A DNA stretch of 64,000 nt from Schmidtea polychroa (taxonomy: Eukaryota). Positions 1 through 17,018 of this stretch are shown in pieces; the first letter of the stretch is position 1; every line of letters begins with the position of its first letter. Made by a program: the position numbers and the translations under genes. Under the pieces are notes generated by a model that had not been told where the DNA came from, ran no database searches, and worked only from the letters and a program-made list of their open reading frames with translations. The stretch covers positions 109,430,001 through 109,494,000 of the forward strand of contig CM097885.1 in the NCBI GenBank assembly GCA_044892525.1. Reading direction: 5' to 3'.

Positions 1-622
1 CATAGAACAATCTTTTATCACCTTCTACTCTATTACAAACTAATTCTATAAAAACATTATGAAGTATACGATTATAGTTTTGAAGGAATCCAAACAAGTG
101 TTTTAATTCAAAATAACCTTCAAATTTTTTAGATTTATAAAGTTCAGCTCTTTTATAGTAACCATAATTTATATCTAAACCATCTTTATCTAAATCTCCT
201 TTATTAACATCAGGAATCCAGCCTGTTAATTCACCATATTCATTTTTATAATCACAACCAGTCAAAATAAAATTTAACATCGTAGAATATACTCCCGGAT
301 GCAAAACAGTTTCAATTTCTGATGATCCTAGTTTTAATCTCATGTTGGAGAATAAATTTGGAAAGAAATTATTTTCTAGGGTTATATCTTTGTTTGCTTC
401 AATTTCTAATTCGATTTTATAATATAATTTGGCATTACAAATATCTATAGGGTTTGATGTTTGAAGAGATTGAAAAACTATATCACCCCTACGATTTAAG
501 TTTGCAATAGATCCTGAAGTTGGGGAGATTTTAAGTACATCGTTTTTCTTGATTTCATGAGTAAATTCTTTATTATAATCAAGATTTAATTTATTTTTTT
601 CTTGAATTTTTATATTATTCAT
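1..622 (-). CDS. Maverick/Polinton major capsid protein (double jelly-roll), N-terminal 207 aa; runs off the window
   Basis: Manual translation (absent from the track because it has no stop in the window): MNNIKIQEKNK...ISPTSGSIANLNRRGDIVF...NNFFPNLFSNMRLKLGSSEIETVLHPGVYSTML...LKHLFGFLQNYNRILHNVFIELVCNR. The NLN..G.I, LFSN....L...EIE.V.HPG..TML and L.HLFGF...Y motifs match Maverick capsid proteins as I recall them. Confidence 0.85.
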   Translation of the reverse strand, partial: MNNIKIQEKNKLNLDYNKEFTHEIKKNDVLKISPTSGSIANLNRRGDIVFQSLQTSNPIDICNAKLYYKIELEIEANKDITLENNFFPNLFSNMRLKLGSSEIETVLHPGVYSTMLNFILTGCDYKNEYGELTGWIPDVNKGDLDKDGLDINYGYYKRAELYKSKKFEGYFELKHLFGFLQNYNRILHNVFIELVCNRVEGDKRLFY

Positions 623-678
623 TTTTATATATTAAAATTTACACACACAAAATAGGATTAATTAAATATATTATGTAA

Positions 679-760
679 GCCATTATAGCGGAGTGGGAAT
701 AGGCTTCAATTTTATCACCGGGAGTACCGGGTTCAATTTTCGATTTTGGTCAATTTTTTT
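679..760 (+). ncRNA. tRNA-like Pol III unit 1 (A box TAGCGGAGTGG 686-696; imperfect B box GGTTCAATTTT 730-740; T7 terminator 754-760)
   Basis: The A box starts at tRNA position 8 counted from G679. T-arm-like ccggg-ttcaatt-ttcga; ends in ggtca followed by a T run. No clean anticodon arm. Confidence 0.5.
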
Positions 761-922
761 CGATATTTTTTTTTCAACGGAATCTGATTCAGCGTACTGA
801 TTTTAGTATATATTTAAATTTTTAGATGGATCTGATTGGTAGTTGTCGAGAAAATGAATAATTAATTATTAATTTCATCAATAAATAGTCACACATTAAC
901 AACTTATTTTATATTGAGTATT

Positions 923-1003
923 ACTCTAATAGCTTAGTGATAATAGCACTCGACTGCATTGCCAATACCAATGGGTTCAAATCCCACTTCGGTCATTTTT
1001 TTT
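923..1003 (+). ncRNA. tRNA-like Pol III unit 2 (A box TAGCTTAGTGA 930-940; B box GGTTCAAATCC 974-984; T8 996-1003)
   Basis: Perfect B box within a T-arm tggg-ttcaaat-ccca; D-arm-like gct...agc; ends in ggtca plus T8. About 60 bp downstream resembles the sequence after unit 1. Confidence 0.6.
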
Positions 1004-1167
1004 CAAATATTTTTTTTAACGAAATATTGATCAGCATACTCGATTTAGTACTTGTACAAATTTTTAAGGAGATTGGTCAACGGCAACTCTTGGAAATTTA
1101 AGATCAAAAACGTTTTAACTTAAGCTACCAAAAATTAATATATCCAATAAAAAAAATATTTATAAAA

Positions 1168-1359
1168 ATGGATGAGTTAAAAGAAAGAATGAGAAATGAA
1201 TTGAATGAAGTTAAACATAAGAGAATGAAAAGAAGAGAAGAAGAACCATTAGAATACATCAAAGAGTTGATGGTAGAGAATGAAAAGTATCGACATTTTT
1301 ACATGAAAGCTGTAGAAGTTGCTGAGATAAGGTTGAAGAAAATGAAACAATTACAGTAA
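1168..1359 (+). CDS. Small E/K/R-rich coiled-coil ORF inside the Maverick (63 aa)
   Basis: ATG in the same TATAAAAATG context as the capsid gene, with coding-like composition. The frame continues RVKELESIIYSLKNEKN after the TAA, so the stop may be premature. Confidence 0.4.
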   Translation: MDELKERMRNELNEVKHKRMKRREEEPLEYIKELMVENEKYRHFYMKAVEVAEIRLKKMKQLQ

Positions 1360-1414
1360 AGAGTTAAAGAACTTGAATCGATTATTTATAGTCTAAAAAA
1401 TGAGAAAAATCCAA

Positions 1415-1496
1415 ACCTAGATAGCGCAGTGGGCTAGACTGGCACAGTGGTTCAAATGGATGGTGGTTCAAATCCTAACTGTGGTTAGTTTTTTTT
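1415..1496 (+). ncRNA. tRNA-like Pol III unit 3 (A box TAGCGCAGTGG 1422-1432; B box GGTTCAAATCC 1465-1475; T8 1489-1496)
   Basis: Consensus A and B boxes at tRNA-like spacing, ending in ggtta plus T8 like units 1 and 2. Confidence 0.6.
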
Positions 1497-1650
1497 CAAC
1501 ATAAAATAATATTAAAAATTTGAAAATAATAGTGTGGGTATCTTAGATTAATAAAGTAGTTGTATATTTTATTTTATTTATTTTATTTATTTTATTTTTT
1601 TATTAATTAATTAATTTTTAAACATAAATATGAAAAAAAAAATATTGAAA

Positions 1651-1728
1651 CGGGTGTGATGGCGAACCGGTAATTATCGTCACCAGTCTTTCGAACACAC
1701 CCGGATCGATCCCTTTCTCAGTTGTTTT
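1651..1728 (+). ncRNA. Possible fourth Pol III / structured RNA unit (A-box-like TGGCGAACCGG 1660-1670; B-box-like GGATCGATCCC 1703-1713)
   Basis: D-arm-like stem GGCGA/TCGTC; alternative stem cgggtgtg/cacacccg; only a weak T run (ttgtttt). Confidence 0.35.
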
Positions 1729-1993
1729 CGGACCTCTTTCGGATTCGCTTTCGAATTCATTTGTACTTTCAAGATCGAATTGATTCTGATGTATGAGTCT
1801 GGCCAGCTTGTATATTGGAAGAGATTTAATAAACGAAAGAGGTTGAAATGATCCGGATCAAAAAAACAGTGAAAAAAAAAAATACCACTGTCCCCTCACA
1901 GCAGTTTTACTATTTTTCATTTATTTTTTAATTTATATAATTTAAAATCAATAATCTGATAAAGATCAACTCCGGAGTTTGATTGCGATCAAA

Positions 1994-2245
1994 AGTAGTG
2001 TGTATATAGCCCTATCCCAAATAGCCCTCTAACTTTTTCATAATGCCATTTTCTTTTCTATTCTCTTTTTAGTTTGAAGCTTTTGAGTTTGAAGCTTTAA
2101 AGATTAAGGGTGGTTGTTGTTTAAAATATGGGGTTAAAATACTATAAAATCATAGGTTTTATGTTGTTTTTCTAATGGTTTAAGCATAATGGAGGTATGT
2201 TCTTGTTGGGAGGGTTGTTTGGGTTAGGGCTATATACACACTACT
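1994..2245. repeat. Inverted repeat at the Maverick terminus: about 36-bp arms (1994-2029 and 2210-2245), 3 mismatches
   Basis: agtagtgtgtatatagccctatcccaaatagccctc against the reverse complement of the terminus, agtagtgtgtatatagccctaacccaaacaaccctc. The flanks (atcaaa and tgccac) do not form a TSD. Confidence 0.9.
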
Positions 2246-2740
2246 TGCCACAGTCGGTATTTTCAGTGGGGCTTAGCCAGGCCTCCATTATACATCGCTC
2301 CACCCAGCTTCATATTCTTGTCGCACTTCAGGCTTAATTGCGAATTTGGCACCGTTGTTACGCAATATAGGGGGTTTGTTTTCCATTTTCACGATATCGC
2401 TAACTTGATTCCGTCAAAACTCGTTTAAAAATCCTCGTCATCAATTGCCACTTGTTCTTAAACAAATGCTGGCATAGATACTCGGGTGCATTCACCAAAC
2501 CGTACGCCATAGTTGTCAATTGAGACTCCCCCAAGATGTTCAATCTAGAGAATCCAATCCCGGGATCCCAGGAATATCGGCTTATTTGTGGCACCAGAAT
2601 CCCGGTGCTGAGAATCTTCGAATCCCGGGATTTCGGTACTGACTACTTGTATGTGAAATTATGCGAAAATATTCAAAATAAACTCAAGTGTTGTCAAATT
2701 CAGTACCGAAAAAAATTTAAAAAGTGAGTTCTGAAAACTT

Positions 2741-2935
2741 TTGATTTCCATAGGAATAGTAAATATTAATTTCAAATAGTTAAAGTGATTTTTTGAAATA
2801 AACTAAGTAGTCCTCAAACTCAGTCAATACAAAAAAAAAGTTCGGCAAAAATTTGATTTCCATAGGAATAGTAAATATTAATTTGAAATAATTAAAGAGC
2901 AGTTTTAAAATAAACTAAGTAGTCCTCAAACTCAG
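2741..2935 (+). repeat. Subterminal direct repeat in the hAT (about 83-bp matching blocks, 112-bp period), followed by (aaaaatattt)x4 at 2941-2980
   Basis: ttgatttccataggaatagtaaatattaatt...aaataaactaagtagtcctcaaactcagt at 2741 and again at 2853. Confidence 0.85.
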
Positions 2936-3000
2936 TGCTGAAAAAATATTTAAAAATATTTAAAAATATTTAAAAATATTTGATTTGAATTTGATAGTAA

Positions 3001-3144
3001 TTTAATATATTATACTTTTAATGTTTGGCACTATTATGATAACTGAAATTTCACGACTACTTAGTTTTAATGCTGTTTAACTAAGTAGTCGTGAAATTTC
3101 AGTTATCATAATAGTGCCAAACATTAAAAGTATAATATATTAAA
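3001..3144. repeat. Perfect 66-bp inverted repeat with a 12-nt loop, 100 bp upstream of the hAT transposase ATG
   Basis: 3001-3066 is the exact reverse complement of 3079-3144; the loop is ttaatgctgttt. Confidence 0.97.
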
Positions 3145-3244
3145 CAATTTGCATTGTTCATCAAGTCAGGTAAAGTTTTTTTTATTATAAAAATTTAGTT
3201 TTCAATATTTAAAATAAAAATTTTCTAGTCCTTATAAACCAACC

Positions 3245-5201
3245 ATGTCCACAAACAAAATCAAGGAATACGTAGAGTGCACTCGAAACTTAATTGAAAA
3301 AACTCCTATATGGGGTTATTTCTTACGTGAAAAATCAGGAGAATTCGCAAAATGTAAGACGTGTAAGTTTAATAAAGAATTAAAAACGGGTGGCGGTTCA
3401 ACCAGTGGACTACATAAGCACATGATGTCAGTTCACTCCATCAATACGTTAAAAAAACCTGCATCCAATCTTCAATTATCGTCAATCGTTTCAACTAGTA
3501 GTAACTCAGCAAACAATGCAAAAAATCAATAATTACAAGTTTTTTCAACCTTTATGACAACTCACTTGATGCAGTATTAGCCAGAATGACCGCTGTTGAT
3601 GGTTTGCCATTTAGAATCTTTGTAGCATCTGTGGAGCTGTGCAAATCCTTATCTGCCCGTGGATTTGATGTGCCCGAATGGGAGTCTACGATTCGTTATA
3701 TGGTAATCAAATATGGTAAATTTATTCGAAAAAAATTAGCTGTCGAACTGCAAAGATTGAAATCCAACGGCGAGCGATTCAGTCTATCTTTCGATGAATG
3801 GACTTCTACAAGAAATCGTCAATATCTGAATTTAAACCTGCATATCAAAGGAAAACATTGGAATTTGGGGTTATTACGAGTGCATGGATCGTTACCAGCA
3901 GAAAAGTGCATCACACAGATTTCTGAAAATTTAAAATCATTTGGTTTGAGCTTGTATGAAGACGTCATTTGTATTACAACCGATGGAGCTTCGGTCATGA
4001 AAAAAGTTGGCAGATTGTTAACCTGTGATCAACAGCTATGTTTTGCACATGCAATCCATCTAGCAGTAGTCGATATTTTGTATAAGAAGCCTGCACAGAT
4101 AGTCCAGCAGAAAACAGTTGAAATCGAAGCCAATAATGACGAGTTCGAATCAGAATTTGATCACTACGATAGCGGATTTCAATTAATTTTTGAGGAAACT
4201 GAACCAGATTTATTAGATGAGCTATTACCATTGATAACAAAAGTAAGAAGTATCGTCAGATTGTTCCGACACTCACCAACTAAAAATGACGATATTCTTC
4301 AAAAATATATCAAAGCAGAGTTTGGTAGAGAAAAATCGTTCTTAATTGACATAAAAACTCGCTGGAACAGTCTTTATGTTATGCTAGAACGTTTTTTTTT
4401 GAAGTAAAAAATGCTGTACTGAAATCATTGATTGATATCAAATCACCGTTATCGTTCAATGAAGAAGAAATGGACTTGATTAGGAATTTTCTGTCAACAC
4501 TAGAGCCAGTTAAAATAGCTGTTGAAGCATTATGCCGTCGTGATTCAACACTTTTGACAGCAGATGCAACTATTTCTTTTCTAATCAATAATTTGGGCAA
4601 CAACTATTTAGCTCTTCATCTCAAAGAAGCAATAATCCGTCGAATAAACGAGCGTCGAACCAACTTATCTAATTTGCTACAATATTTGCAGCAAGGAAAT
4701 AAAGTTTACGATGACTTTGATCTAGACTTGTGTTTAAACTTTAAACAGCTAACAAAAACTCAGATTATTAACTTAATTTTTGAGTTGGTTAATCGTATGT
4801 CCAAACCGTTTACCAGCGAACCACCGCAGGAATGCGAATCAGACAAAGAAATTGAAATAACTGTAGATGTAGAAGCATTGGTGTCTCTACAAGAAAAACT
4901 GGACAGAGCAATTAGTCAAGAAACTAATTCCAAAATTGTACCAAAAACGACAAAAACAGCAAACGATATAGTAAGTATTGTCAAAAAGAGCTGGCAGTTT
5001 TCGAGGCAGAAGGTTGTCGCGGATCCATACTCGAAAAAAACTTACAACTACTTGAATTCTGTACCACCTACCAGCGTAGAATCGGAGCGAGTTTTTTCCG
5101 GATGTTCAATAGTTGCAACTAAAATTCGATCATCATTAAATGATGAAAGCTTGGATATATTGTGCTTTCTTCGATCATATTTTAAACTTGCCAACAACTG
5201 A
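3245..5201 (+). pseudogene. hAT transposase, frameshifted (BED zinc finger, DDE core, C-terminal dimerization domain)
   Basis: BED finger CKTC...HKHMMSVH; SFDEWTS; TTDGAS; CFAHAIHLAV; TRWNS; PPTSVESERVFS. Split into three ORFs by single-base frameshifts at A6 (about 3520) and T8 (about 4393). Confidence 0.92.
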
Positions 5202-7189
5202 ATTTATTAATTATTTTCTATTTCTACTGAATTCTATTCATTTTTGTATTTCATTTTTATTTTTTGTTTGATTTACTATAAAAAATCTTTTGATATATCC
5301 ATTTTTCTTTTAATATATTTCAGTTTCAGATTTCTCTTCAGTCCCGGTGCCAGTACCGGGAACCCGGTACTGAAAAAATCTAGTACCGAAATCCCGGGAT
5401 CAAAAAAATTGACCGGTATTGGATGCTCTAGTTCAATCGCATCAAGATCTGAAATAACATCCACTCCGGCTAGAAGATTTGTCATTAATAAGCAATTTAA
5501 CACAAAACTTGTTCCTTGAACAGATAAATGGCACTGACTCTCCTTCACAGCGTAATCTTCTTCCACTAACTGCAACAATATACATGGTTTCACCAATTCC
5601 TTCTGCAAAGATCCGGGAAACAATGGTTTGAGAACATCCAGAATCAATTAGTCCAGTGCACGACTTTCTATTCACTCTGAGTCTGACAAGTAACCTCACC
5701 ATCCCAGACATCACTGAGAAACCGATAGTGCTTCAGTTTCTCTTCTGACGTTTCCATGTGGGTTTGAAGAGCATTGTCTGAATGAATGCCGTTTGATGCC
5801 GCATATCCAACACTCTTGAGAAGGGCATTCATTGTCCAAATTTTCAACAGTTAGCACAGTTTGATTTCTTTACCCGGCCCAAAACCACTTCCCTTCACTC
5901 CAATTAGGCCAGAAGAGCCGTTTTGTTCGGATATTAGTTGAAATACTTCTGAAAGGTTCATTTCGAAGATCCTTGCTAAAGCTCTGAGCTGATGGGAGTT
6001 CAACTACAAACACTCTCTTGAGGACCCCGTTATCATTTATCCAGGCCAGCGTAGCTAATTGCTGCAGATCCGCAAGAAAAACATCAAATGACTCTCCATT
6101 CCATAGTCAATTGCGAAATGTATCGTAAGCCTGGAAGCCATCCATCAAAAAGGCATCTGTGAAAGCATTTTCTATTGCGTCGCTGTTTTCTTTGTCCTTC
6201 TCGTTCAGGTGGTTGTAAATGATGGTCGTAAACGAGAAAGCTGTTCCATCACACAGCAATGGGAGGAAAAAAGTAAAATATCCGATTTTTTGATGCTTAG
6301 CCACTACTTTCAGTATTTTAAACCAAGTAGAAAACTCACCGACTCCATTGTAAAGCTTTATAAATTTATTTTATACAGACCACTTAGTTCAAATTCAATT
6401 TTACATTTTTACGTTAAAACTTAAATTAAAAAATGTCAACTGGTAATTTTGAGTGTTCAGTCTATATTGAATAAGCGAGAAATAGAATTTTTTTTCAGAA
6501 TCAAAAAAACAGTTCTATTACATATTTTCAAAAATGAGAAAGAATAAAATTACTTTCATGCGATATTCACGAATCATAAATGTTTAAAAAATTTTAACTA
6601 TGTCGCCGCATGCCACACAATTTTTTTTCCGTGCCAGCTGAATCAACGAATAGAGGACGAGCATGTGATGGAACAGATCAGACCGCTGATTCCAATATAA
6701 AAGACTGTTTTCAAAACTCGAATCGAACAGCTACGAAGGACTAGTGTCTAGGAAGCCTCGCGATCGAGCTTGACGACGGGCTCATAAGGAAATCCGTATC
6801 GCAAGGAGTTTGGGGAAGAAACTAGTCAGCCTTGATTCACATAGTGAGGTGTACACACATTCTTACTTTGATTACTAACTAAAATAGTAGAGCGACTCGT
6901 CACTAGTCTTTATCCCATCCGTAACTAGGAATAATGCGCAGTTTACGATTTCCCGTGTTGGGGCCTTTAATCATTGACATACATAACGACTATTACTGTA
7001 AATAACCTCGAACAGATGAATAATGGCGCCGGAATTTAATTTATAATGTTATTTCAATGGAAAGACGCTTAAAAGCGCAACAAACAAAATTGCAACAGCT
7101 GAGATAGACAAGGCAGCAGTTACTAGAGGCCATACCGCGGCGATAGAAGACTAAGCTATACTAAAATAAATCGTAGTGCGATTGTTAAT

Positions 7190-7375
7190 ACGACTTTGTT
7201 ATAGTTAACGTTATTACTTCTTAACCCTTGTTAAGAGATCGGCGAAATAAAGAAGGGACCTAAAACCAAGTCCGATATATGCTTTCTAACGGTATTCCAC
7301 GAACCCACTCGAGTGCTTGCCGATTATAGTGTAAAAAGGTACGTTCACTTTTTGCAAGTCCTCACCCATTCGATA
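7190..7375 (-). mobile_element. Possible heavily decayed LTR-retrotransposon integrase fragment
   Basis: IEWVRTCKK* ... SWNTV..HISDLVLGPF..(fs)NKG*EVITLTITK resembles the WV.SC..C and W..V..D..GP...S.KG...LT motifs; needs frameshifts. Confidence 0.35.
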
Positions 7376-10107
7376 TTGATTACTCAACGGTTATTGAGTG
7401 GTAAAGGAACATGGAAACAGCATGAAAAGATAAAATGTGAATTACCTTTAACCCACCATGAATAAAGAACCAACAGATTGAAATTCATTGCTTTAAAGTA
7501 AAAGAAAATGCTTTAAAGAAACTATTAGTAAGTACAAACATTGTTCAACAAATAAAAATGACATTAATGTTTTGCCTTTACAATTTCTGAACCATCATGA
7601 TGTCAGTTCAAATGCTAAAATTCTTGCTTATTGTTTTCCCTAAAATATTAATTATATTAATAAATATTATTACTAAATATAATAATAATAAATAAAAATT
7701 ACTATTAATAAATATTATTAATTAAGAGATTGAAGCCACATAGCTTTCTATAAAAATTTTCACATTTTTAATGAATTTGAGGAGATAAACTGAGTGTCTA
7801 ATCGATACGAAATATTGCACAGTTATATACCAACCCATCCTGTGTCACGCCAACATATCTATTTGTGTTTGCAGTTCGCAAAAATTATTTTATTCTGTTT
7901 TTGAGAAAGTAGATACTTTTCCCTAAATTATGTATCAAAACGCACAATTTTCCACGAATCTTGTTAATGTTATGCAAAAGCTATTAGTTTCACGTTGTTC
8001 TACATAATATTTGGTTTAGAACAACTTACTTATGACTTAAAAGGGTAGTACGCAATTCCTGGCTGATTCGCGGAAGGCGAAAATTGTTAGCAAAACTATA
8101 ATTTTGAGAAACACCACATTCATCTGTAAAACATAAAGACATTCAAGGTCACTTGTCACTACTAATAGGTGATTTTCACCAACTTGCTGACTCCACTCAA
8201 CAGCACAATTTTAACTCAATGATTCATGGACATGTTCCTTCGAAAAATATAATATTTACAATTTAAAAAAGTTTTTAATTTATGCACTTTATTTTCCATT
8301 TAAATGTAATAAACATTTTAAATACCAATACGCACCTCACAGTATCGTAGATTAATCGAGTTCATCTTACTGCCAAGATTTTATAAATATAAAAAACACA
8401 AATTTGATAAAATGTTTGAACCATGAAAAACATGAATGTTTACTTCTAATTTGCAAGCTCATAAAGCTTGTGAAATGGAATGAAATCTTTCATATTATTT
8501 TCATGTCAAAATGACATCTAGCGTTGTTGTAGTTAATACATTTTTCCCAATGTTTTAGTGTTAACATTGAAAAAATGAGTACTAAAATCGAACATATTAT
8601 TTCATTTAACCACTTAACAGTCTATTTTTTTTTGAAAAGATTTCCAAATGTCCACCTACCAACACTCAAAGCGCAACTAGCACATTCGTGTTTTAATTCA
8701 CTAGCACCCATGAACTAGCACGGTTAGTGAAAATCACTCTTTACAAGTCAAAACAGAATTTGCCCGAACGAGGCTCGGGTATGTTACTACATCAACAAAA
8801 TCAATGCTCGAGTCACGCTCGTGCAAAACTGTTAAGTGATTAATATTTTCAAAGGATCTCATTCAAAGCTATAAAAAAAGAAATGAAATATGACAGAACA
8901 ATAAGCTCTATGTGTTATTTTATCAAAGGGGATACTTTGGTCCTCTTGAATACTTACGGGTTAATTTTCCTGATAAAAACACGCATTTTCAAATTTTCTA
9001 TGTAGAAAAGATGAAGCTAAACCTATTTCTTTTTCAACAGCTATTCTAAATTAAATAAAATTGCTTTATACAATTTTAATCACAATTTTCTTGAAGATAT
9101 TTTTTAAGGATTTAATTTTAATTAATTTCAGACATTTTATTTAATTTTATAGTTAATTCACATAAAAAAGACATTATGTTAAAAAATATAAAACTAATTC
9201 CAAATTTAGATAAAACTTAACAATTAAAACAAAATAATTTGCGATCTTATACTTCTATAAAATTTATGGACAGACGAGTAATATAATACGGTTGAGATGC
9301 AAATTTAGCGGTTCTTTTCAATTGCCTAATTAAATATATAATATATTATTATTTAATGAAGATGCATACTAATTAATTGGACAATTCAAAATTGTTCTTG
9401 ATAGACAGTTAACAAAAAGGCATATTAAATTATTTGTATTAAACATTTTGAACGTTAGTAACCCTCTAAAAAATAACAAAAAATAAATTTGGGATCTATA
9501 ATGCAGTTTGAAATCATTTTTTGGATAAATATTCAATAAATATTTTTCTCTGTTTTACATAACTTAAATAAAAACAAATCTCCTTAACATCATAAGTTCT
9601 ATTATTCATAGTGGATTTAGATATTTTATTATTAATTAAAAATTTTTGTAAAATTATTAAATCATTCTAATTTAAATTGCATATGAAATTAATATATATC
9701 GGGAAAATGTAAGATTTTAGCAACTGCATTTATTTAAAAATTAACTTCGTGACACTGGTAGTATATATGAATAGGGTGACCGTCAGTAGTATTTTATTTC
9801 ATACAACTTTTTATTTTATTAAAGAAAAAAAACTTTCAGTTTTAATGCCAAAATGACTTCATTCTTAATTAGGAACTGAAATATAAACTGTAGAATTCTA
9901 CGTGATTAAAGCTTTTCAATAAGTTTAACCCTTTACTGCGCAATTTTGAAATATTTAAAATATAAATTACTTATTTTTTAAATTTTTAGTCGGTGTCCAT
10001 TTAAATTATGTAAAGAGTTGCACGTCAAATATAATAAATTGAGTTACTGCAAGATACTAATGAATATCCATTGAGAACTTTAGTTGTCGTTGCATATGTA
10101 TATCAAA

Positions 10108-10545
10108 CAGGCCCCTCGACAGCAGTTCCGGGGCCTAGGCAGAGCACTTCATGGACCACTAAACAATTGTTAATTGTACAACGCATAAAATAGCAGATGA
10201 CGTTTTATTTGACGTAGTGGCCTGTGACCCGTTGGTGTGTTCTATATACACAAATGATACGCATGATTTCAGTTTCAGTAATCATGGTTAGTAAATATAA
10301 CAGTTTTTAATTCCAGCATCGAAAAAACTGAAAACTTTATTTAGTTTATTTTTGAATATTGATACAGATGTTGATCTAACTACTTGTTGATGTTCGTTCA
10401 ATTTATTCTGATGGAATTCAGATATTTGAACTTTACCCTAATTGTGGTTAAGTCAACTGAAGTGTCAGTAATATTATATTTGAATACATAACAAATCGAA
10501 CCCGGGCCACTGGCATTTGCACCCATACCCCTCTCAGTGGGCCTA
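10108..10545. mobile_element. Non-autonomous hAT-type MITE (438 bp)
   Basis: Ends CAGGCCC... / ...GGGCCTA; perfect 8-bp TSD atatcaaa at 10100-10107 and 10546-10553. Confidence 0.8.
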
Positions 10546-10664
10546 ATATCAAAGTGCTGCAAAGGATTAAATTGGATTATTTTATCAGGGAAATTCTATT
10601 TTATATTATTCTATTTCTATTTAATTTTTATTTTGCCATTCTTGTAAGTGTTTAGAATTCGAAC

Positions 10665-11050
10665 TTATATTTTTTTTTCACATATCACACGTTCAAAACA
10701 ATTATCAAACTTTTTTGATAAGATTTTAAAATCAGACATTCCTAATTCTCTCATACAGATTTTATTGTGATCCTTAATATTGGACATTCCCTTCGGTCGA
10801 CAGTGTTCTTGAACTCGAGTACAGAGATGACGGGAAGTCTCTCCAATGTATGTGGCATTACACCCATTATATGTGAATTGATAAACGAGATCCGAACACA
10901 ATCCAACCGGCGTTTGAGATTTACTAACAACCATACTACGTACTTTGCACGATTTTGAAACAATTCTATAATTCAATGTACCCAACTGTTTACCAATCTT
11001 TCTTTTGAAATCTTTATATCCTTCAGAATACGGCAATACCATCGTATATT
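10665..11050 (-). mobile_element. Penelope-like retroelement fragment (GIY-YIG endonuclease)
   Basis: LPYSEG...LVYQFTYNGCNATYIGETSRHLCTRVQEH...DFKIL: the VY...C..C...YIGET.R.L..R..EH motif of Penelope-type GIY-YIG domains. Confidence 0.85.
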
Positions 11051-11254
11051 TTGGCTCATCTTGTTTGTTAGTATCAATATTCATATTCACTACATCATTC
11101 GACATATCAGTCAATTTACATTCATTCATACTAAGATTCTTAGTATTCCAGGAGCTGGGCGTTCTATGTCTACTTGGAAACCTTTAAAAAATTGTTGTGT
11201 GTTTGAACCTGATTTTAGCTACTGCTGTCATTTGTTTAACTATGAATTCCCTCA

Positions 11255-11362
11255 TCGCTACATCTCGTTTAGTATCTTAATGAGGTGTGCAATGCCTTGT
11301 ATCATGTATTCGTCAATGTTTGGCACTATGCCTAAACCTATGCCTAAAATTTTCAGTGTGCA
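11255..11362 (-). mobile_element. Possible non-LTR retrotransposon post-RT fragment
   Basis: GIGLGIVPNIDEYMIQGIAHLIKILNE resembles the GLG...DE......H...LN block that follows the RT in RLE-type non-LTR elements, and the block at about 12080-12145. Confidence 0.35.
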
Positions 11363-11585
11363 TAGATAAAATTGTTGTTAATATTTTGATGTATGTCATG
11401 TTGAAGAATATTAGTTTTATTTGAATTAATTGACTTTTTCGATTTTTCGAAAATTATTTGTGATTCTGTTTGTTTGAATTTGTGATTTTAGATTTAATAA
11501 AAGTTTGTAAAATTTAAAAATAAATTATTTTGCAAATTCTAATTTATAAGTTAAATTTTATAAAATATCTTCAATTCCCTATTAA

Positions 11586-11818
11586 CCCTTTCGCCCCTAT
11601 TGGGACAATACGTCCCAGAAACTTTCATCATGATCCTACTGGGATATTTTCAAATGGTCCATAAAAGCCTATTGGGACTTATTATCCCAGGACTTTCTAG
11701 GATATTCAGAAGCGCCACGATTACAAAAATGAGAATATTTCATATTTAGGTCAATATTAACAAGTTCCAATATATAAATTTAGCATAGTGTCATTAGCGG
11801 AAAGTCGGTGCGAAAGGG
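11586..11818. mobile_element. piggyBac-type MITE (233 bp)
   Basis: TIR CCCTTTCGC(C)CC / GG(T)GCGAAAGGG, flanked by TTAA on both sides (11582-11585 and 11819-11822). Confidence 0.85.
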
Positions 11819-11842
11819 TTAATTACTAGTATTTTTCTAAAA

Positions 11843-12066
11843 ATGGATAGTTATGTTAATATTCAAGATAACATTAGTTTAAATAATGAATTTCAAGATT
11901 ACTGGACAGAGATTATGAATCTCTATTCTAAAAAATTATGGCATCAGATTAGTGTTGATTTGAAAAACCTTTATGATCAACTTATTTCATCATTCGAAAA
12001 TAAAATAAATTCGTTGGCTCTGGCAAGGATTTCTATATTAATTAGTTTCCAGATTTTAGAGAAAGA
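11843..12066 (+). pseudogene. PSMD13: 5' fragment of 26S proteasome lid subunit Rpn9/PSMD13
   Basis: YWTEIMNLYSKKLWHQIS...LYDQLISSFENKINSLALARI matches the PSMD13 N-terminus (W..LEELYTKKLWHQL...[21 protein letters not shown]). It is intronless here, about 15 aa between the two blocks are missing, and it ends at an antisense RT fragment. Confidence 0.75.
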
Positions 12067-12069
12067 AGG

Positions 12070-12565
12070 GCCGTTTCTATCGGGTTTAAAGAGTGAAATG
12101 CATGATCAACATATATTAAAAGAATTTGGTCCCAATCCGGTTGAGACTAAACACGAAAAATGTCATCTAGTGTATCTTTTAATATTCTTTTGATTTTCTG
12201 GTCATATTCTAATTGCTTGGGTCTGTTTTGTACGACTTTGTTCCTATTGCTGTCAAGAATCATGTGATTAATTGTGCAGTTCCTAAAGAAGAATATTAAT
12301 CTAGAGTGGATAAATGTTTTATATGCTTGTATTTTTTGCGCAGGGTGTAAGTCAGAAGTCATTACTTTTGTTGTGTATTCAATTTCTTTAAAAATTGTAT
12401 CGTCAATGTCGTGTTTGTCCTTTTGACCAAAGTCAACTCCTAAGTATTTGTATATGTTATCTTGATCAATGATTGGTATGTTTTCACTATATATTGTTAA
12501 GGGTATCTCTTTGTGGTTTCGTTGAAGTTGGAAGTACCCACATTTAGAGGGTCTGAATTTCATTT
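12070..12565 (-). mobile_element. Non-LTR retrotransposon RT C-terminal fragment (RLE clade, NeSL/R2/R4-like)
   Basis: KFRPSKC...YKYLG...SDLHPAQKIQAYKTFIHSRLIFFFRN: RT domains 6-7 plus the L.P.QK..A.K.F..PRL.F thumb motif; then a frameshifted GLG...VDHAFHSLN. Confidence 0.8.
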
Positions 12566-12665
12566 CTACATATATTAAAATAAAGGGAAATAAAAAATTA
12601 AATTACTTAAATTATTACTCTATAACAGCGTTGAAACATCAATAATTACAGTTTTATTCATTTAA

Positions 12666-12848
12666 CTGAAAATTATACAACTCTGCATTATAAACTATAT
12701 ACACTATAGTGTTGGTTTGGTTCTATCTTCTACTTACACCTTGTTTTTACAAATTCCAAGCAAATCTTGCGAGCTTTGGCGGCTGCAAAATCTGAAAATT
12801 ATACAACTCTGCATTATAAACTATATACACCATAGTGTTGGTTTGGTT
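12666..12848 (+). repeat. 57-bp direct repeat (12666-12722 and 12792-12848, 1 mismatch)
   Basis: ctgaaaattatacaactctgcattataaactatatacac(t/c)atagtgttggtttggtt occurs twice; the second copy marks where the ZMYM1-like fragment breaks off. Confidence 0.85.
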
Positions 12849-14025
12849 ATTCTCCTTGGACAATGGCCATTAGACGTTGAAATACACTATGCCAACGAGC
12901 CTTTTCACTATTTATTAATTTTTGGCTCTGTTTGTCAATTTTACATCGTTTTGTTAGTCTATTTTCCAGCTCAAACCATTCCAAAGTAGATGTCATATGT
13001 CCCTTTGATTTCTCATGATCAGAGAGTCTCACACTGGCATTTTCTTGTCACAAATCCCGTTGGATTCCAGAGCAGACAATGTGTTGCCAAAAAGTTTGCA
13101 ACAGAAACAAAACATTTGTTCTTAGCTGCTGAATATATAATTCATTTTCAGTTGACAACTTCTCCATTTCCCTTATGTCATTTGCAGTAGGTTGTAGAAA
13201 GATTCCGTCTATTGCTATATGCTGGAAAATCTTTTTCATCAATTTTTTTGGCCCATTGCAAATAATTGTAGAACGAGTGTCTGCATTCAAATATTCTGGT
13301 CGAGTTGCTGGATCACTAAAATCATCATTTATCAAACCAACAAAATCTTCTGTTTCTTATTTTGCAGTTGCAGATATCCGTGTTCCTGTAATCTGAGAAG
13401 TATCAACACTTCCAACATCAGAAGTATCGATACTAGACTCTGTGTTATTTTCATAAGTTGCTGAATCCTTGTATTCTTCAGAAGTTGACGATGTTGACGA
13501 ACTTCGATGTTGTTGTACAAGAAATTTATTGAGAGATTGTGTTAATGCCTTAATTATGGGCGTCCGCAAGGGGGGGGGGGCAAGTGGGGGCACTTGCCTC
13601 CCCCGAATTTCCCAAACAATTCTATTTTTCGATTAATTTAAACACATTTTAATAGATGCACTCAAACAATGTTGGAAAAACCCAAGACAAAAAAAAATTT
13701 AATTTAAAGAGGCTTCCTGTTTTTTTTAATGTTATTAATTATATCTGAAAATCAATGATTTCAAATCATCTTATTTGTATAAAAACTTTCAATATTAACT
13801 GACGTTCTGGTTTAAAAAAAAGTGTTCTATTTTATAAAAAAACGAAAAAAAGTCCTATTTTGTCTTAGGCCCCAAATATTTATTATACACATGCCTTTTT
13901 TAACTCTTCTCCCTAGAAAAATTGTCTACTTGGTAAAAATATTTTTGCCCCCTCCCTTGGAATAATTCCTGCGGACGCCCATGGCCTTAATTTGGCTTTC
14001 TTGCGCTGCTTTTTGTTTTTACCTG
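12847..14025 (-). mobile_element. Decayed ZMYM1-like (TTF zinc finger) hAT transposase 5' fragment, interrupted by a MITE
   Basis: Basic start SGKNKKQRKKA, then FSDPA..., then RLSDHEKSKGHMTSTLEWFELENRL...IDKQSQKLINSEKARWHSVFQRLMAIVQ, typical of ZMYM1-like hAT transposases; stops and frameshifts present. Confidence 0.75.
13555..13983. mobile_element. Non-autonomous hAT-type MITE (429 bp)
   Basis: TIR (T/C)ATGGGCGTCCGCA / TGCGGACGCCCATG; perfect 8-bp TSD gccttaat at 13547-13554 and 13984-13991. Confidence 0.92.
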
Positions 14026-14033
14026 AATTAAAT

Positions 14034-14255
14034 TACACACACCATGCTGTTAATCACAAATTGGAATATGTTAACCAAGAAACTGGTGTTCATACCAACA
14101 CTATTGAACGATTATGGGTAATTTAAAAACTGATTTAAGAAGTAGAAGAGGAATGTCATTTACCGAAAAAAATGACTTTTATTGATTTTAAAATGTGGTT
14201 AAGAATGCAAAATACAACAGAAAATCATTTATTAGATTTGATTTATTTATTATTT
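14034..14255 (+). mobile_element. Merlin (IS1595/ISXO2-like) transposase C-terminal fragment
   Basis: YTHHAVNHKLEYVNQETGVHTNTIERLW(fs)GNLKTDLRSRRG: the VNH...V...TG.HTNTIE.LW motif carrying the third catalytic residue (E). Confidence 0.75.
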
Positions 14256-14570
14256 AATTATTTTTTTTGGGATGTGTATAGTAAACCGTCGCCAAATAAA
14301 AAAAACTTTAAAGACTTTCAACAAAATAACAAAATAGCAAATTTATTAAATTTAAGTTAATATTATTTGATTACTTAAATAAATTGAACAATGAACTTTT
14401 TATTACAAAAATTTTAAAATAATCAAATTACAAAATAAAAAAAAGTTATTTCGTGAAAATATACAATAAAATCACGTTATCACACTTTGACTGTCGTCGG
14501 TATCAAAAGAATAAGTATCTGAAACTGAAAATTTAATATTAATATTCTAAATATTTCAATTATAATTTAA

Positions 14571-14928
14571 CTCTTTTGCGACTCCTCTTACACAGGGTTG
14601 GATTTAGACTTTTGTGGGTCTTAGGCAGAGGTAGATTTGAGGCCATTTTTTGCAATTTTTACTTTCTCCCACGGTGAATCGTGCAAAAATTCAATATTTT
14701 ATATTTGAAAATTTGTTTCTGTATTTGGAAATGCAATTTCCATATTTTTTTTAATCATACTATATATATATATATATGACGATTGCTTACTTGGACAATT
14801 AGTTTTAGGGCCCCCAAGAAAGTGGGAACCTAAGGTATATGTTATGTAGCTTATATGTAAATTCTGCACTGCTCGTACACATATGTACCTCTACATTTTA
14901 TGTAAGAAAGAAATACGTTGCCAAAAGG
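14571..14928. mobile_element. Possible tiny piggyBac-type element hosting the 14593-14871 MITE
   Basis: TTAA-CTCTTTTGCGAC ... GTTGCCAAAAGG-TTAA; imperfect TIRs, and only about 71 bp remain once the nested MITE is removed. Confidence 0.35.
14593..14871. mobile_element. Non-autonomous hAT-type MITE (279 bp), older
   Basis: Imperfect TIR CAGGGTTGGATTTA / TAAATTCTGCACTG; TSD ctcttaca / ctcgtaca (7 of 8 match). Confidence 0.65.
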
Positions 14929-15540
14929 TTAATAAAGCCCAAAATTGTTTAATTTTCTAAAAAATAAAATGGTAGCAAAATACCTTATCCTATATTGTCC
15001 TTCCTGAACAATTGAGAGAATAGCAAAAGAGTTGTTGTTTTATACTAATTTGAATTTAAATATTTCGAATAAATATAGTTCATCTATTTGTGTCAATAAT
15101 GATAAAATCACCGAAGTCCTCAAAATACAATCTAACGGAATCATATTTTCACAAATGATGTTAACAATTCCAAAAGTTACAAATTTTTTTCAATACTTGC
15201 ATATGTACAATATTTTTCAAAAATATAATAAATAAAAATTATATTACAATGAAATTTTATAATTTATGAAAACAAAGGCGATCAATGTCACTCATTCAAT
15301 TTGTCACTAATCGATACCTCTGTTACAGAAAATACTTAAGAGTTCTTTATTTGTCCAATATATTTTACTGCTTAGTCACACGTGTTGTAACAACGTAATC
15401 TAGCTTTCTAGATAGTTATTGAAGCCGAAAGGAATAAGCATTTATTTTTATTATTTAAAATTTTGATACTGGAGAAAAGAGTAACCAATCAAAGCAGAAA
15501 GAAATCTTTAAAAAAATTAATACATGTGAACAATAACAAA

Positions 15541-15546
15541 TTTATT
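15541..15546 (-). terminator. Candidate polyadenylation signal AATAAA of the giant-protein gene
   Basis: AATAAA on the minus strand about 75 nt after the stop. The context is AT-rich, so a chance match is likely. Confidence 0.3.
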
Positions 15547-15618
15547 TAAATTTCAATTTAGAGCGATTAAGGCTATATTATAGCAGAAAATTAAGAAAAA
15601 TATTTATAAATTTACCAT

Positions 15619-15769
15619 TTATTTATTATTTAATTTGTCTCTAGAACTCCTAATAATATTTGCAGTTTCTTCTAACAATTTTTTGGATTTTTGAATATCA
15701 AAATTAGATCTTCTGTATAATGATTGAGTGCTTTGTGACGGGGATAAATTTGTCCTTTGTGATACAGAC
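15619..15769 (-). CDS. Giant-protein gene, terminal exon (RSVSQRTNLSPSQSTQSLYRRSNFDIQKSKKLLEETANIIRSSRDKLNNK-stop)
   Basis: Acceptor TTTCAG at 15771-15770 after a 49-nt intron; 50 in-frame codons ending in TAA at 15621-15619. Confidence 0.8.
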
Positions 15770-15818
15770 CTGAAATAAATACTAGATCAGAAGAAAATTA
15801 TTAAAGCTCTTTTATCAC

Positions 15819-15886
15819 CTAAATGTTTGAAGGGGGGTGATATGTCTTTCTTTGTATTTTCGCCAAATTGAGGCAGGCTGTTTATT
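15819..15886 (-). CDS. Giant-protein gene, tail exon 5 (68 nt; NKQPASIWRKYKERHITPLQTF)
   Basis: Acceptor CCTTATAG at 15888-15887 after a 143-nt AT-rich intron; donor AG|GTGATA at 15819/15818; in frame. Confidence 0.75.
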
Positions 15887-16029
15887 CTATAAGGACATAA
15901 ACAATATGGTAATCATTATATTATTTTTGAACAATAAGATTTTATTATTAAATTAAAAATTATTTAAATTGCAAAACTTAAGTGTTATAAAAATTAAAAG
16001 AACAAATAAAATAAAGAAAAGTATCATAC

Positions 16030-16093
16030 TTCACTGTTTGTCCTATCGAAGGTCACCTTCTCAGTGGAAATTGAAGAAATAGATTTATTATAT
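16030..16093 (-). CDS. Giant-protein gene, tail exon 4 (64 nt; RYNKSISSISTEKVTFDRTNSE)
   Basis: Acceptor TTTAG at 16095-16094 after a 41-nt intron; donor GAA|GTATGA at 16030/16029. Confidence 0.8.
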
Positions 16094-16134
16094 CTAAATT
16101 CAAATAACAAAATATAAAAGGTAAAATAAAATAC

Positions 16135-16786
16135 CTAGAAAGGCGATTTCTAACATCAGAAATACGATTACGATGTTCTTGCAACTGTTTCTCAACATCA
16201 ACACGAGAAAGAGATGCAGAACTTAAAATAACTTCATTTTGCTTTTTTAATAAATCAAGAAAATGAAAAAGTTGAGATGGACCATTAGAATCAGGAAAAG
16301 GAGAAGAGATTCTTGAAGGATCGTTTTTTGAGATAGAAGCATTAGAAGATCGACGACTTGAGAAATAATTACTGAAATTATTCTCGAGAGATTCAAGCCT
16401 CAAATTAGCATTGTCAGTTACATGAAGCAAATGATCATTATCAAAGAAATGATCAGATTCGATTTCAACACGGGCTTGATTTTTGTCAAAAGCTGACGCA
16501 AAAGCGTCCGTTTGACCTTCTAAATATTTCAATTCCATTTCAAAGATATGCATCCAGTTAGAAGGTTTTTTAGAATTCAAATTCAAATTAGATTCTTCAT
16601 CTAAAGGCTGATATTGAGAAGGAAAAAGAGGTAGATCAGAGGAATTAAAATGAGAAAAAACATTGGAATCAGCATAATATCCGATTTCAGAAGATTTTTC
16701 AAAGTCAGAAATTGATTGATCATGTTGAGATTGAAACGAAATAGAAATATCATCGGTCAAATCATCAGAATGACTGTTAACATCAA
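16135..16786 (-). CDS. Giant-protein gene, tail exon 3 (652 nt; Ser/Asp-rich, with a coiled-coil-like LLKKQNE...RISDVRNRLSR segment)
   Basis: Corresponds to ORF 16053..16760. Acceptor TTTCTAG at 16788-16787 and donor AG|GTATTT at 16135/16134. Length is 2+648+2, which keeps the frame. Confidence 0.88.
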
Positions 16787-16825
16787 CTAGAAACGAAATA
16801 ATAAATTAAAATAAATAAAAATTAC

Positions 16826-16867
16826 TTCGAGAACTAGATGGAGAAAAGGAATCTAGTAATTTTCTAT
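16826..16867 (-). CDS. Giant-protein gene, tail exon 2 (42 nt; DRKLLDSFSPSSSR)
   Basis: Acceptor TTTTAG at 16869-16868, with an alternative in-frame AG 6 nt upstream at 16875-16874. Donor A|GTAATT at 16826/16825. The frame is preserved on both sides. Confidence 0.75.
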
Positions 16868-16919
16868 CTAAAACTAAAAAGTAAATAAAGAAAACGGAAG
16901 AAATCAAAAATAAACATAC

Positions 16920-17018
16920 CAATAGGCTGAACAATATTCAAAATATTAGGAGAAGGTTTAGAGTTTGATTCAGGGACAGAACCGACAGAATAATGACGAC
17001 CAAGTAAATGAACCGGAA
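16920..17018 (-). CDS. Giant-protein gene, tail exon 1 (99 nt, phase 1/1; VPVHLLGRHYSVGSVPESNSKPSPNILNIVQPI)
   Basis: Acceptor TTTTTTAG at 17020-17019 and donor G|GTATGT at 16920/16919. In frame with the giant exon across a 39-nt intron. Confidence 0.85.

Follow-up and report, generated by a model that had tools for sequence, protein, structure and literature searches.

Mavericks (Polintons) are likely relatives of adenoviruses. In the 64,000-nt stretch of DNA analysed here, called the window below, one such element carries four tRNA-like units between its capsid gene and its terminus. The original prediction was that they may be Pol III small-RNA genes of the element, or insulators made of TFIIIC-bound boxes. 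The locus thus raises the question of whether Mavericks encode Pol III RNAs of their own and where such units come from.

The Maverick element around the units

The element is a complete Maverick of about 15 kb, and the start of the window falls inside it (features in Table 1). We found the full set by which Mavericks/Polintons are recognised: pPolB, integrase, ATPase, protease and capsid genes, terminal inverted repeats (TIRs) and a 6-bp target duplication, identical copies of which flank both ends (terminus at 2245). The capsid ORF matches PF21738 with an E-value of 1.5e-4, under the curated cut-off. The other ORFs lie in the neighbouring assembly sequence upstream of the window; pPolB, ATPase and protease were named by motif reading and the integrase by Pfam rve on its homologues, and the polymerase ORF of this copy is fragmented. 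The setting between capsid gene and element terminus is thus as predicted. Units 3 and 4 lie inside the TIR and are therefore present at both ends, while units 1 and 2 lie outside it. Of the other matches to positions 640-1780, the best 40 run the full length with few exceptions and show 92-96% identity. A count for a capsid 24-mer (323) covers a variable site and was set aside.

Several features of the element are recorded here in their own right. Maverick termini are 236-255-bp modules flanked by inverted arms that open with the terminal motif. They come in five or more sequence types, which are swapped among elements, and the inner arm is missing in some copies. The left end of the window's element has a 106-bp tandem duplication of the terminus, with the target duplication flanking the outer copy. 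In the integrase ORF (stretch L031:7924-9315, minus strand) the N-terminal region contains a PLA2-like motif, and most of the ORF's listed homologues carry PF08398 together with PF00665. The small ORF between units 2 and 3 is charged.

Table 1. Features at the right end of the Maverick, in window coordinates.
Feature	Position	Strand	Remarks
Major capsid (double jelly-roll) ORF, 5' part	2..631	-	First ATG near 622; PF21738
Captured rDNA-spacer piece	634..1131	+	497 bp; carries units 1-2; sister Maverick lineages lack it
Unit 1	679..760	+	A box 686, imperfect B box 731, internal T4 runs, T7 754-760; host rDNA-spacer unit
Unit 2	923..1003	+	A box 930, B box 975, T8 996-1003; host rDNA-spacer unit
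Small ORF	1168..1359	+	63 aa here, 70 aa in 25/30 copies; missing from some lineages
Right terminal inverted repeat	1381..2245 (start approximate)		Partner about 11.6-12.7 kb upstream of the window
Unit 3	1415..1496	+	A box 1422, B box 1466, T8 1489-1496; constrained boxes, variable body
Unit 4	1651..1728	+	A box 1660, B box 1704, T4 1725-1728; promoter head of the long structured segment
Multibranch domain	1725..1848	+	10-bp closing helix; arm of about 68 nt after 1773 deleted in this copy
25-bp G-U-rich hairpin	1774..1835	+	7-nt loop, pre-miRNA-sized; folds on this strand only
Terminal hairpin, A-rich loop	1861..1917	+	This copy has lost part of the 5' arm; T4 1905-1908 and T5 1913-1917 come next
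Self-inverted terminal module	1994..2245		37-nt arms, 180 nt apart; exchangeable among sequence types

Elsewhere in the window, a single open frame of at least 15,649 codons occupies 17050-63999 on the minus strand and is still open at the window end. It consists of near-identical 990-bp (330-aa) repeats rich in Glu, Lys and Leu, and no Pfam family passed in its last 649 aa. A broken hAT transposon with split transposase ORFs (PF05699) adjoins the Maverick at 2714-5201; it contains 112-bp subterminal repeats (2714-2936) and a perfect 66-nt inverted repeat (3001-3144), which gives miRNA-family Rfam matches below cut-off. A 172-aa ORF at 10665-11183 on the minus strand has a weak GIY-YIG match (E 0.004, below cut-off) and is perhaps a retroelement fragment. 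In the genome, the host tRNA and 7SL genes form long tandem arrays, with about 1,000 matches for tRNA-Cys at a 281-bp period, 424 for tRNA-Lys, 278 for tRNA-Arg and 593 for 7SL.

Four promoter-type units

A scan of positions 633-1990 for an A box, a B box and a T4 run returned four units, all on the plus strand and at the places predicted; the same scan gave no further unit on the other strand and none in window positions 2250-17000. When the 633-1990 sequence was shuffled 2000 times, 1997 shuffles gave no unit and three gave one. All four units thus have the layout of type-2 Pol III genes, with A and B boxes at tRNA spacing (45, 45, 44 and 44 nt for units 1 to 4) and a T-run downstream. Unit 1 departs from it in its imperfect B box and contains three internal T4 runs.

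The units are not proper tRNAs, because ARAGORN found no tRNA within the window, Rfam tRNA (RF00005) was unmatched in window positions 1-6000 and in a later Rfam scan, and the folding of the units of about 80 nt is no better than that of shuffled sequences (z of -0.05 to 0.6). With the threshold lowered to 70%, tRNA calls for the units were only inconsistent. tRNA genes were rejected on these grounds, and the predicted lack of a proper anticodon arm was borne out. Folded 80-nt RNAs from units 1-3 are likewise unsupported, as their z-scores stay near those of shuffles and no common fold was found for unit 3. Among the exact matches of unit 2 and of the long segment, sampled on chromosome 1, we did not find the free dispersed copies with target duplications of their own that mark a tRNA-derived SINE.

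Units 1 and 2 match the host rDNA spacer

At 96% identity, the piece of the element with units 1 and 2 matches the intergenic spacer of the host 45S rDNA. A 24-mer of unit 2 has 3,001 exact matches genome-wide. We sampled 20 of these loci by taking one in five from the first 100 in the list, which are all on chromosome 1: 19 were Maverick and one was rDNA, which matched the window only over 634-1131. A spacer-type 26-mer has 1,063 matches, and the listed ones lie mostly about 13 kb apart on unplaced contigs and chromosome tips. This 13-kb repeat is the 45S rDNA, since Rfam identified 18S, 5.8S and 28S genes in the three regions scanned, out of four fetched. The idea that all 3,001 unit-2 matches are Maverick copies was rejected, given the one rDNA locus among the 20 and the 1,063 spacer-type matches that are mostly rDNA.

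All six spacer arrays that were read carry units 1 and 2. Each of them comprises an extra unit that is missing from the Maverick, then unit 1, then one to three copies of unit 2. The array units are spaced by 237-244 nt and, in the three regions scanned, run antisense to the rRNA. No Maverick sequence beyond the shared piece was seen in the rDNA repeat of these six arrays. The rDNA intergenic spacer also holds 104-bp subrepeats. On the Maverick side, the ends of the piece correspond to the empty site of lineages that lack it, with short A/T microhomology. Secondary loss of the insert in three copies was rejected, as another filler of the empty site is present there.

Of the 498 positions of the captured piece, 11 differ from the rDNA letter, and within unit 1 most of 30 copies show no difference at all. 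These comparisons indicate that units 1 and 2 are a recent capture of host spacer DNA and not viral genes. The probable direction of transfer is from rDNA to Maverick, because the boundaries match the empty site and the array is larger on the host side. The 5' half of unit 2 resembles host tRNA-Cys(GCA), the best match of only three host tRNAs compared. An antisense tRNA-like array of Pol III type in the host 45S rDNA spacer is a side result and a host feature of separate interest; a search by title and opening abstract found no description of one.

Unit 3 is constrained in its boxes

A degenerate 22-mer of unit 3 has 3,183 matches genome-wide. Its ratio to the 2,523 exact matches of the long segment is near the ratio of the two among the first-listed places on chromosome 1, so no large pool of unit 3 outside Mavericks is indicated.

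We then compared 98 copies of unit 3. Variants common to at least four copies occur in only one of 21 box columns as against 27 of 60 other columns (p 5e-4, columns counted by hand), and the sole shared box variant is an allowed purine swap. Because the A box and the middle of the unit served as anchors for collecting the copies, conservation of the A box is favoured; the unanchored B box (no shared variant in 10 columns) is therefore the cleaner case. No common fold was found among the copies (consensus energy -2.7 kcal/mol). Several lineages carry unit 3 as a diverged tandem pair. The unit stands head-to-head with the capsid ATG, about 45 nt away in lineages without the insertions, and with the polymerase ORF start, about 105 nt away. 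Unit 3 is thus likely kept for being bound or transcribed and not for an RNA fold.

Unit 4 heads a long structured segment

The original prediction ranked unit 4 as the weakest of the four. It emerges instead as the best VA/TMER-like candidate, as the head of a segment of about 350 nt and not 80. The window copy of this long segment has three deletions, most copies being about 100 nt longer, and this damaged copy folds with a z of -2.4. The intact copy in the left TIR of the same element reaches -8.15 on the promoter strand, compared with -3.70 on the other strand. Among 87 distinct copies the fold energy was lower on the promoter strand in every case. These copies came from 105 anchors, of which five had no 3' anchor; identical copies were merged and one short copy was dropped.

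The segment opens with the promoter head, which has a T4 near +88. A multibranch domain comes next, then A-rich linkers and a terminal hairpin, and T4 and T4-5 runs follow near +360. The hairpin and the T4/T5 runs that follow it are the predicted 3' end of the RNA. In the intact copy, the 25-bp arm has a z of -5.5 in the sense orientation against +1.2 antisense. Three further arms, one of them the terminal hairpin, fold on either strand. Taken as DNA, the long segment folds on both strands (z -5.7 and -4.4).

Variation among the 87 copies was examined at paired columns, where the common variants alternate G-U with A-U or G-C. One pair changes from G-C to A-U in 24 of the 87 copies, and only one of 102 pairs is changed on both sides in a compensatory manner. 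Pairing survives all 11 transitions common to at least four copies and 16 of the 24 private ones (Fisher p 0.03, with paired columns taken from a single-copy structure). The variants are not independent, because the copies recombine; counted as nine independent sites, the same test gave p values of 0.007-0.026. Variants found in two or three copies mostly break pairs (two keep, six break). On the antisense fold, too, four of five reference copies gave a significant result in a less strict form of the test. In the boxes of unit 4, the only shared variant is at one N position of the B box.

The layout of tRNA-like head, hairpin and poly-T is present, with the 25-bp hairpin in it; the head forms no cloverleaf and an internal T4 lies ahead of the hairpins. 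No Rfam match at cut-off was found for the long segment, VA RNA (RF00102) being absent even to E 10. Matches to MIR7526 and other miRNA families in Rfam are below cut-off and reflect plain hairpins. No target or partner emerged either, exact complementarity to the rest of the element not exceeding 12 nt. A 7SL origin of unit 4 was rejected (z -0.1 for the whole, -2.0 for the 5' end), as was an rDNA origin of units 3 and 4, for which the matches are AT-rich or B-box-sized only. The strongly folded stretch of about 350 nt headed by unit 4 is predicted to be a small RNA comparable to those with which some animal viruses counter RNA silencing by the host.

None of the sequencing runs listed for these sequences is on record as RNA, and no direct sign of a Pol III transcript was seen. 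In two studies, contigs from runs guessed to be RNA include unit 3 and the long segment's body, but equally capsid and polymerase sequence, and they carry no information on transcript level, strand or ends. Loose poly-A ends were rejected as transcript ends, since they match genomic A-tract variants.

Distribution of the cassette

The first 30 listed exact matches of the long segment all continue into Maverick end sequence. They comprise 14 left ends, 10 right ends with the captured rDNA piece, five right ends without it and one unclear case, so that the piece is present in 10 of the 15 classifiable right ends. In these samples, units 3 and 4 appear restricted to Maverick ends. The original prediction would have yielded to dispersed host sequence such as SINEs. 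Units 1 and 2 come close to that case as host rDNA spacer, though they are not SINEs; for units 3 and 4, the samples speak against host SINEs outside Mavericks.

The cassette of unit 3 and the long segment is not present in every element. Among 20 copies selected by their integrase, two complete but diverged elements are without any unit at either end. A mosaic element with another terminal module and a 72%-identical polymerase region carries unit 3 and the long segment at just one of its ends, and the long segment is common to unrelated types of terminal module. Judged from these copies, the cassette is probably an accessory module, which lineages acquire, exchange, double or dispense with. 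Outside this genome, weak tests found no homologue: a 27-mer had no exact match in metagenome contigs, and a capsid search of viral contigs gave none. The absence of A+B+T units from 82 integrase-related contigs is weak evidence, as these (238 kb) are mostly short, with their ends unchecked.

Possible roles of the units

The comparisons show that the four units are not of one kind: units 1 and 2 are host spacer DNA, and units 3 and 4 are borne by the element. The idea of Maverick-encoded Pol III small RNAs finds no support for the former and is supported in outline for the latter. Our main reading, to which we give a probability of roughly 0.4, is that unit 4 would direct a Pol III RNA of the TMER/VA type whose one-strand hairpin feeds or titrates small-RNA enzymes. 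TFIIIC would bind the A and B boxes and Pol III would start about 7 nt ahead of the A box. The polymerase might then halt at the T4 near +88, yielding a short form, or read through to the hairpin and T4/T5 near +360, yielding a long form that could be likened to TMERs in joining a tRNA-like head to downstream hairpins. The 25-bp G-U-rich arm may be cut by enzymes of the Dicer/Drosha type or occupy them, and the dose supplied by some 2,500 copies of the gene could weaken the silencing of the element. Two papers, available in part, are relevant if the host is a planarian, as might be guessed from its four large chromosomes, size and AT content: one in which planarian Polintons are described as piRNA-silenced (PMC8532177), and bioRxiv 10.64898/2026.01.28.702291. 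More doubtful is the wider proposal that animal Mavericks encode, in thousands of TIR-borne genes, a VA/TMER-like 350-nt Pol III RNA, Dicer substrate or decoy against host silencing, that was built by repeated capture of host units, the rDNA-spacer capture being the latest.

The main weakness of the unit 4 reading is the internal T4, which is present near +88 in nearly all copies, because the first run of at least four T in the host tRNA-Cys gene is itself a T4. With a run of this terminator type ahead of them, the hairpins may lie outside the Pol III product. Read-through of T4 by Pol III is reported in the accessible part of PMC8223928.

The boxes might also serve in cis. tRNA genes can act as chromatin barriers, and TFIIIC/TFIIIB bound to the boxes could open chromatin or stop heterochromatin near the capsid and polymerase starts, the RNA being a by-product. 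This possibility fits unit 3 best: that unit retains its boxes and neither its body nor a fold, it faces both gene starts, and it is doubled in tandem in several lineages; the lineage with two extra captured units is moreover common among right ends. As an account of the locus at large we consider it improbable, since the one-strand G-U-rich hairpin and the pair-keeping variants are left unexplained and elements without any unit are still complete. The same dispensability, together with the youth of the family as judged by its 92-96% identity, is what one would expect if the units were mere passengers, remnants of a now extinct SINE or of host Pol III genes, which entered at the ends and are copied along with the TIR and whose order and structure are inherited and unselected. 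For units 1 and 2, where the capture route is proven, this is the default reading. The long segment also has a SINE-like plan of tRNA head, body and A-rich tracts, and deletions occur in the window copy and in others. Extended to all units the passenger account is unlikely, given that no host source of units 3 and 4 turned up in the rDNA repeat, in 7SL or in Rfam at cut-off, that Maverick ends alone account for the genome-wide counts, and that the variants segregating among Maverick lineages avoid the boxes and leave pairing intact.

A role in protein-primed replication or packaging, in which the RNA (as with BocaSR or EBER2) or the folded DNA strand would act at the termini, has in its favour the position of the segment, which lies beside the terminus at each end. 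It can also draw on the fold-back modules that make up the termini, on the folding of either DNA strand of the segment, and on the case of BocaSR, according to the accessible text a genome-end Pol III RNA required for DNA replication. The G-U-rich arm, by contrast, folds on one strand only, the longest exact complementarity to the rest of the element is 12 nt at most, and one element has the cassette at a single end and two lack it, all of which makes this role rather unlikely in our view.

Should the Pol III RNA of unit 4 be real, a structured RNA borne in the TIR would give Mavericks a tool for counter-silencing or replication and would help explain how one Maverick family got to over a thousand copies. 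It would also suggest a route by which VA-type RNAs originate, namely the capture of host Pol III units. The idea lends itself to direct testing, since the genome holds thousands of near-identical copies of the gene.

Comparison with known systems

A Pol III RNA of Mavericks is a credible candidate and apparently so far undescribed: a search by title and opening abstract, with subscription journals and Repbase outside its range, found no description. In the available text of the adintoviruses paper (PMC8502044), tRNA has a lone mention, in a figure legend on other viruses. Viral precedents for Pol III RNAs are VA, EBER, TMER, BLV and foamy virus RNAs (PMC4378190) and BocaSR (PMC11194592), as far as the accessible parts of these papers go; the likenesses below draw on the same parts.

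A set of Polinton-like viruses (PLVs) and virophages has 558 tRNA and 10 miRNA Rfam hits (PMC12220804, available in part), so Polinton-class elements may carry host-type RNA genes. The PLV tRNAs are recognisable and are proposed there to serve codon compensation, whereas neither ARAGORN nor Rfam accepts the units described here, one of which is joined to a long structured body. Human bocavirus BocaSR (PMC11194592) is likewise a type-2 Pol III gene in a non-coding region beside the end of a small linear genome. It is, however, 140 nt long, single-copy and shown to aid replication. The Pol III pre-miRNAs of BLV and foamy viruses (PMC4378190) also come from clustered type-2 units in an integrating virus, the foamy-virus ones in terminal repeats; their short units each form a hairpin, unlike units 1-3 here, which do not fold.

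With adenovirus VA RNAI and VA RNAII (PMC4378190) the candidate has in common internal A and B boxes, strong double-stranded structure and a relative of linear, protein-primed DNA viruses as its carrier. VA RNA differs in being about 160 nt long and inhibiting PKR, and the Maverick cassette, for its part, sits in the TIR and lacks an Rfam VA match to E 10. The TMERs of MHV68 do not match it in sequence, and the Maverick segment differs from them in its head, which ARAGORN does not read as a cloverleaf, in its length of about 350 nt with a multibranch domain, and in being endogenous in thousands of copies. Yet the TMERs share with it a tRNA-like 5' head of type 2, followed by hairpins and poly-T, and units that are clustered in a DNA virus (PMC4378190, PMC8223928, each as far as accessible).
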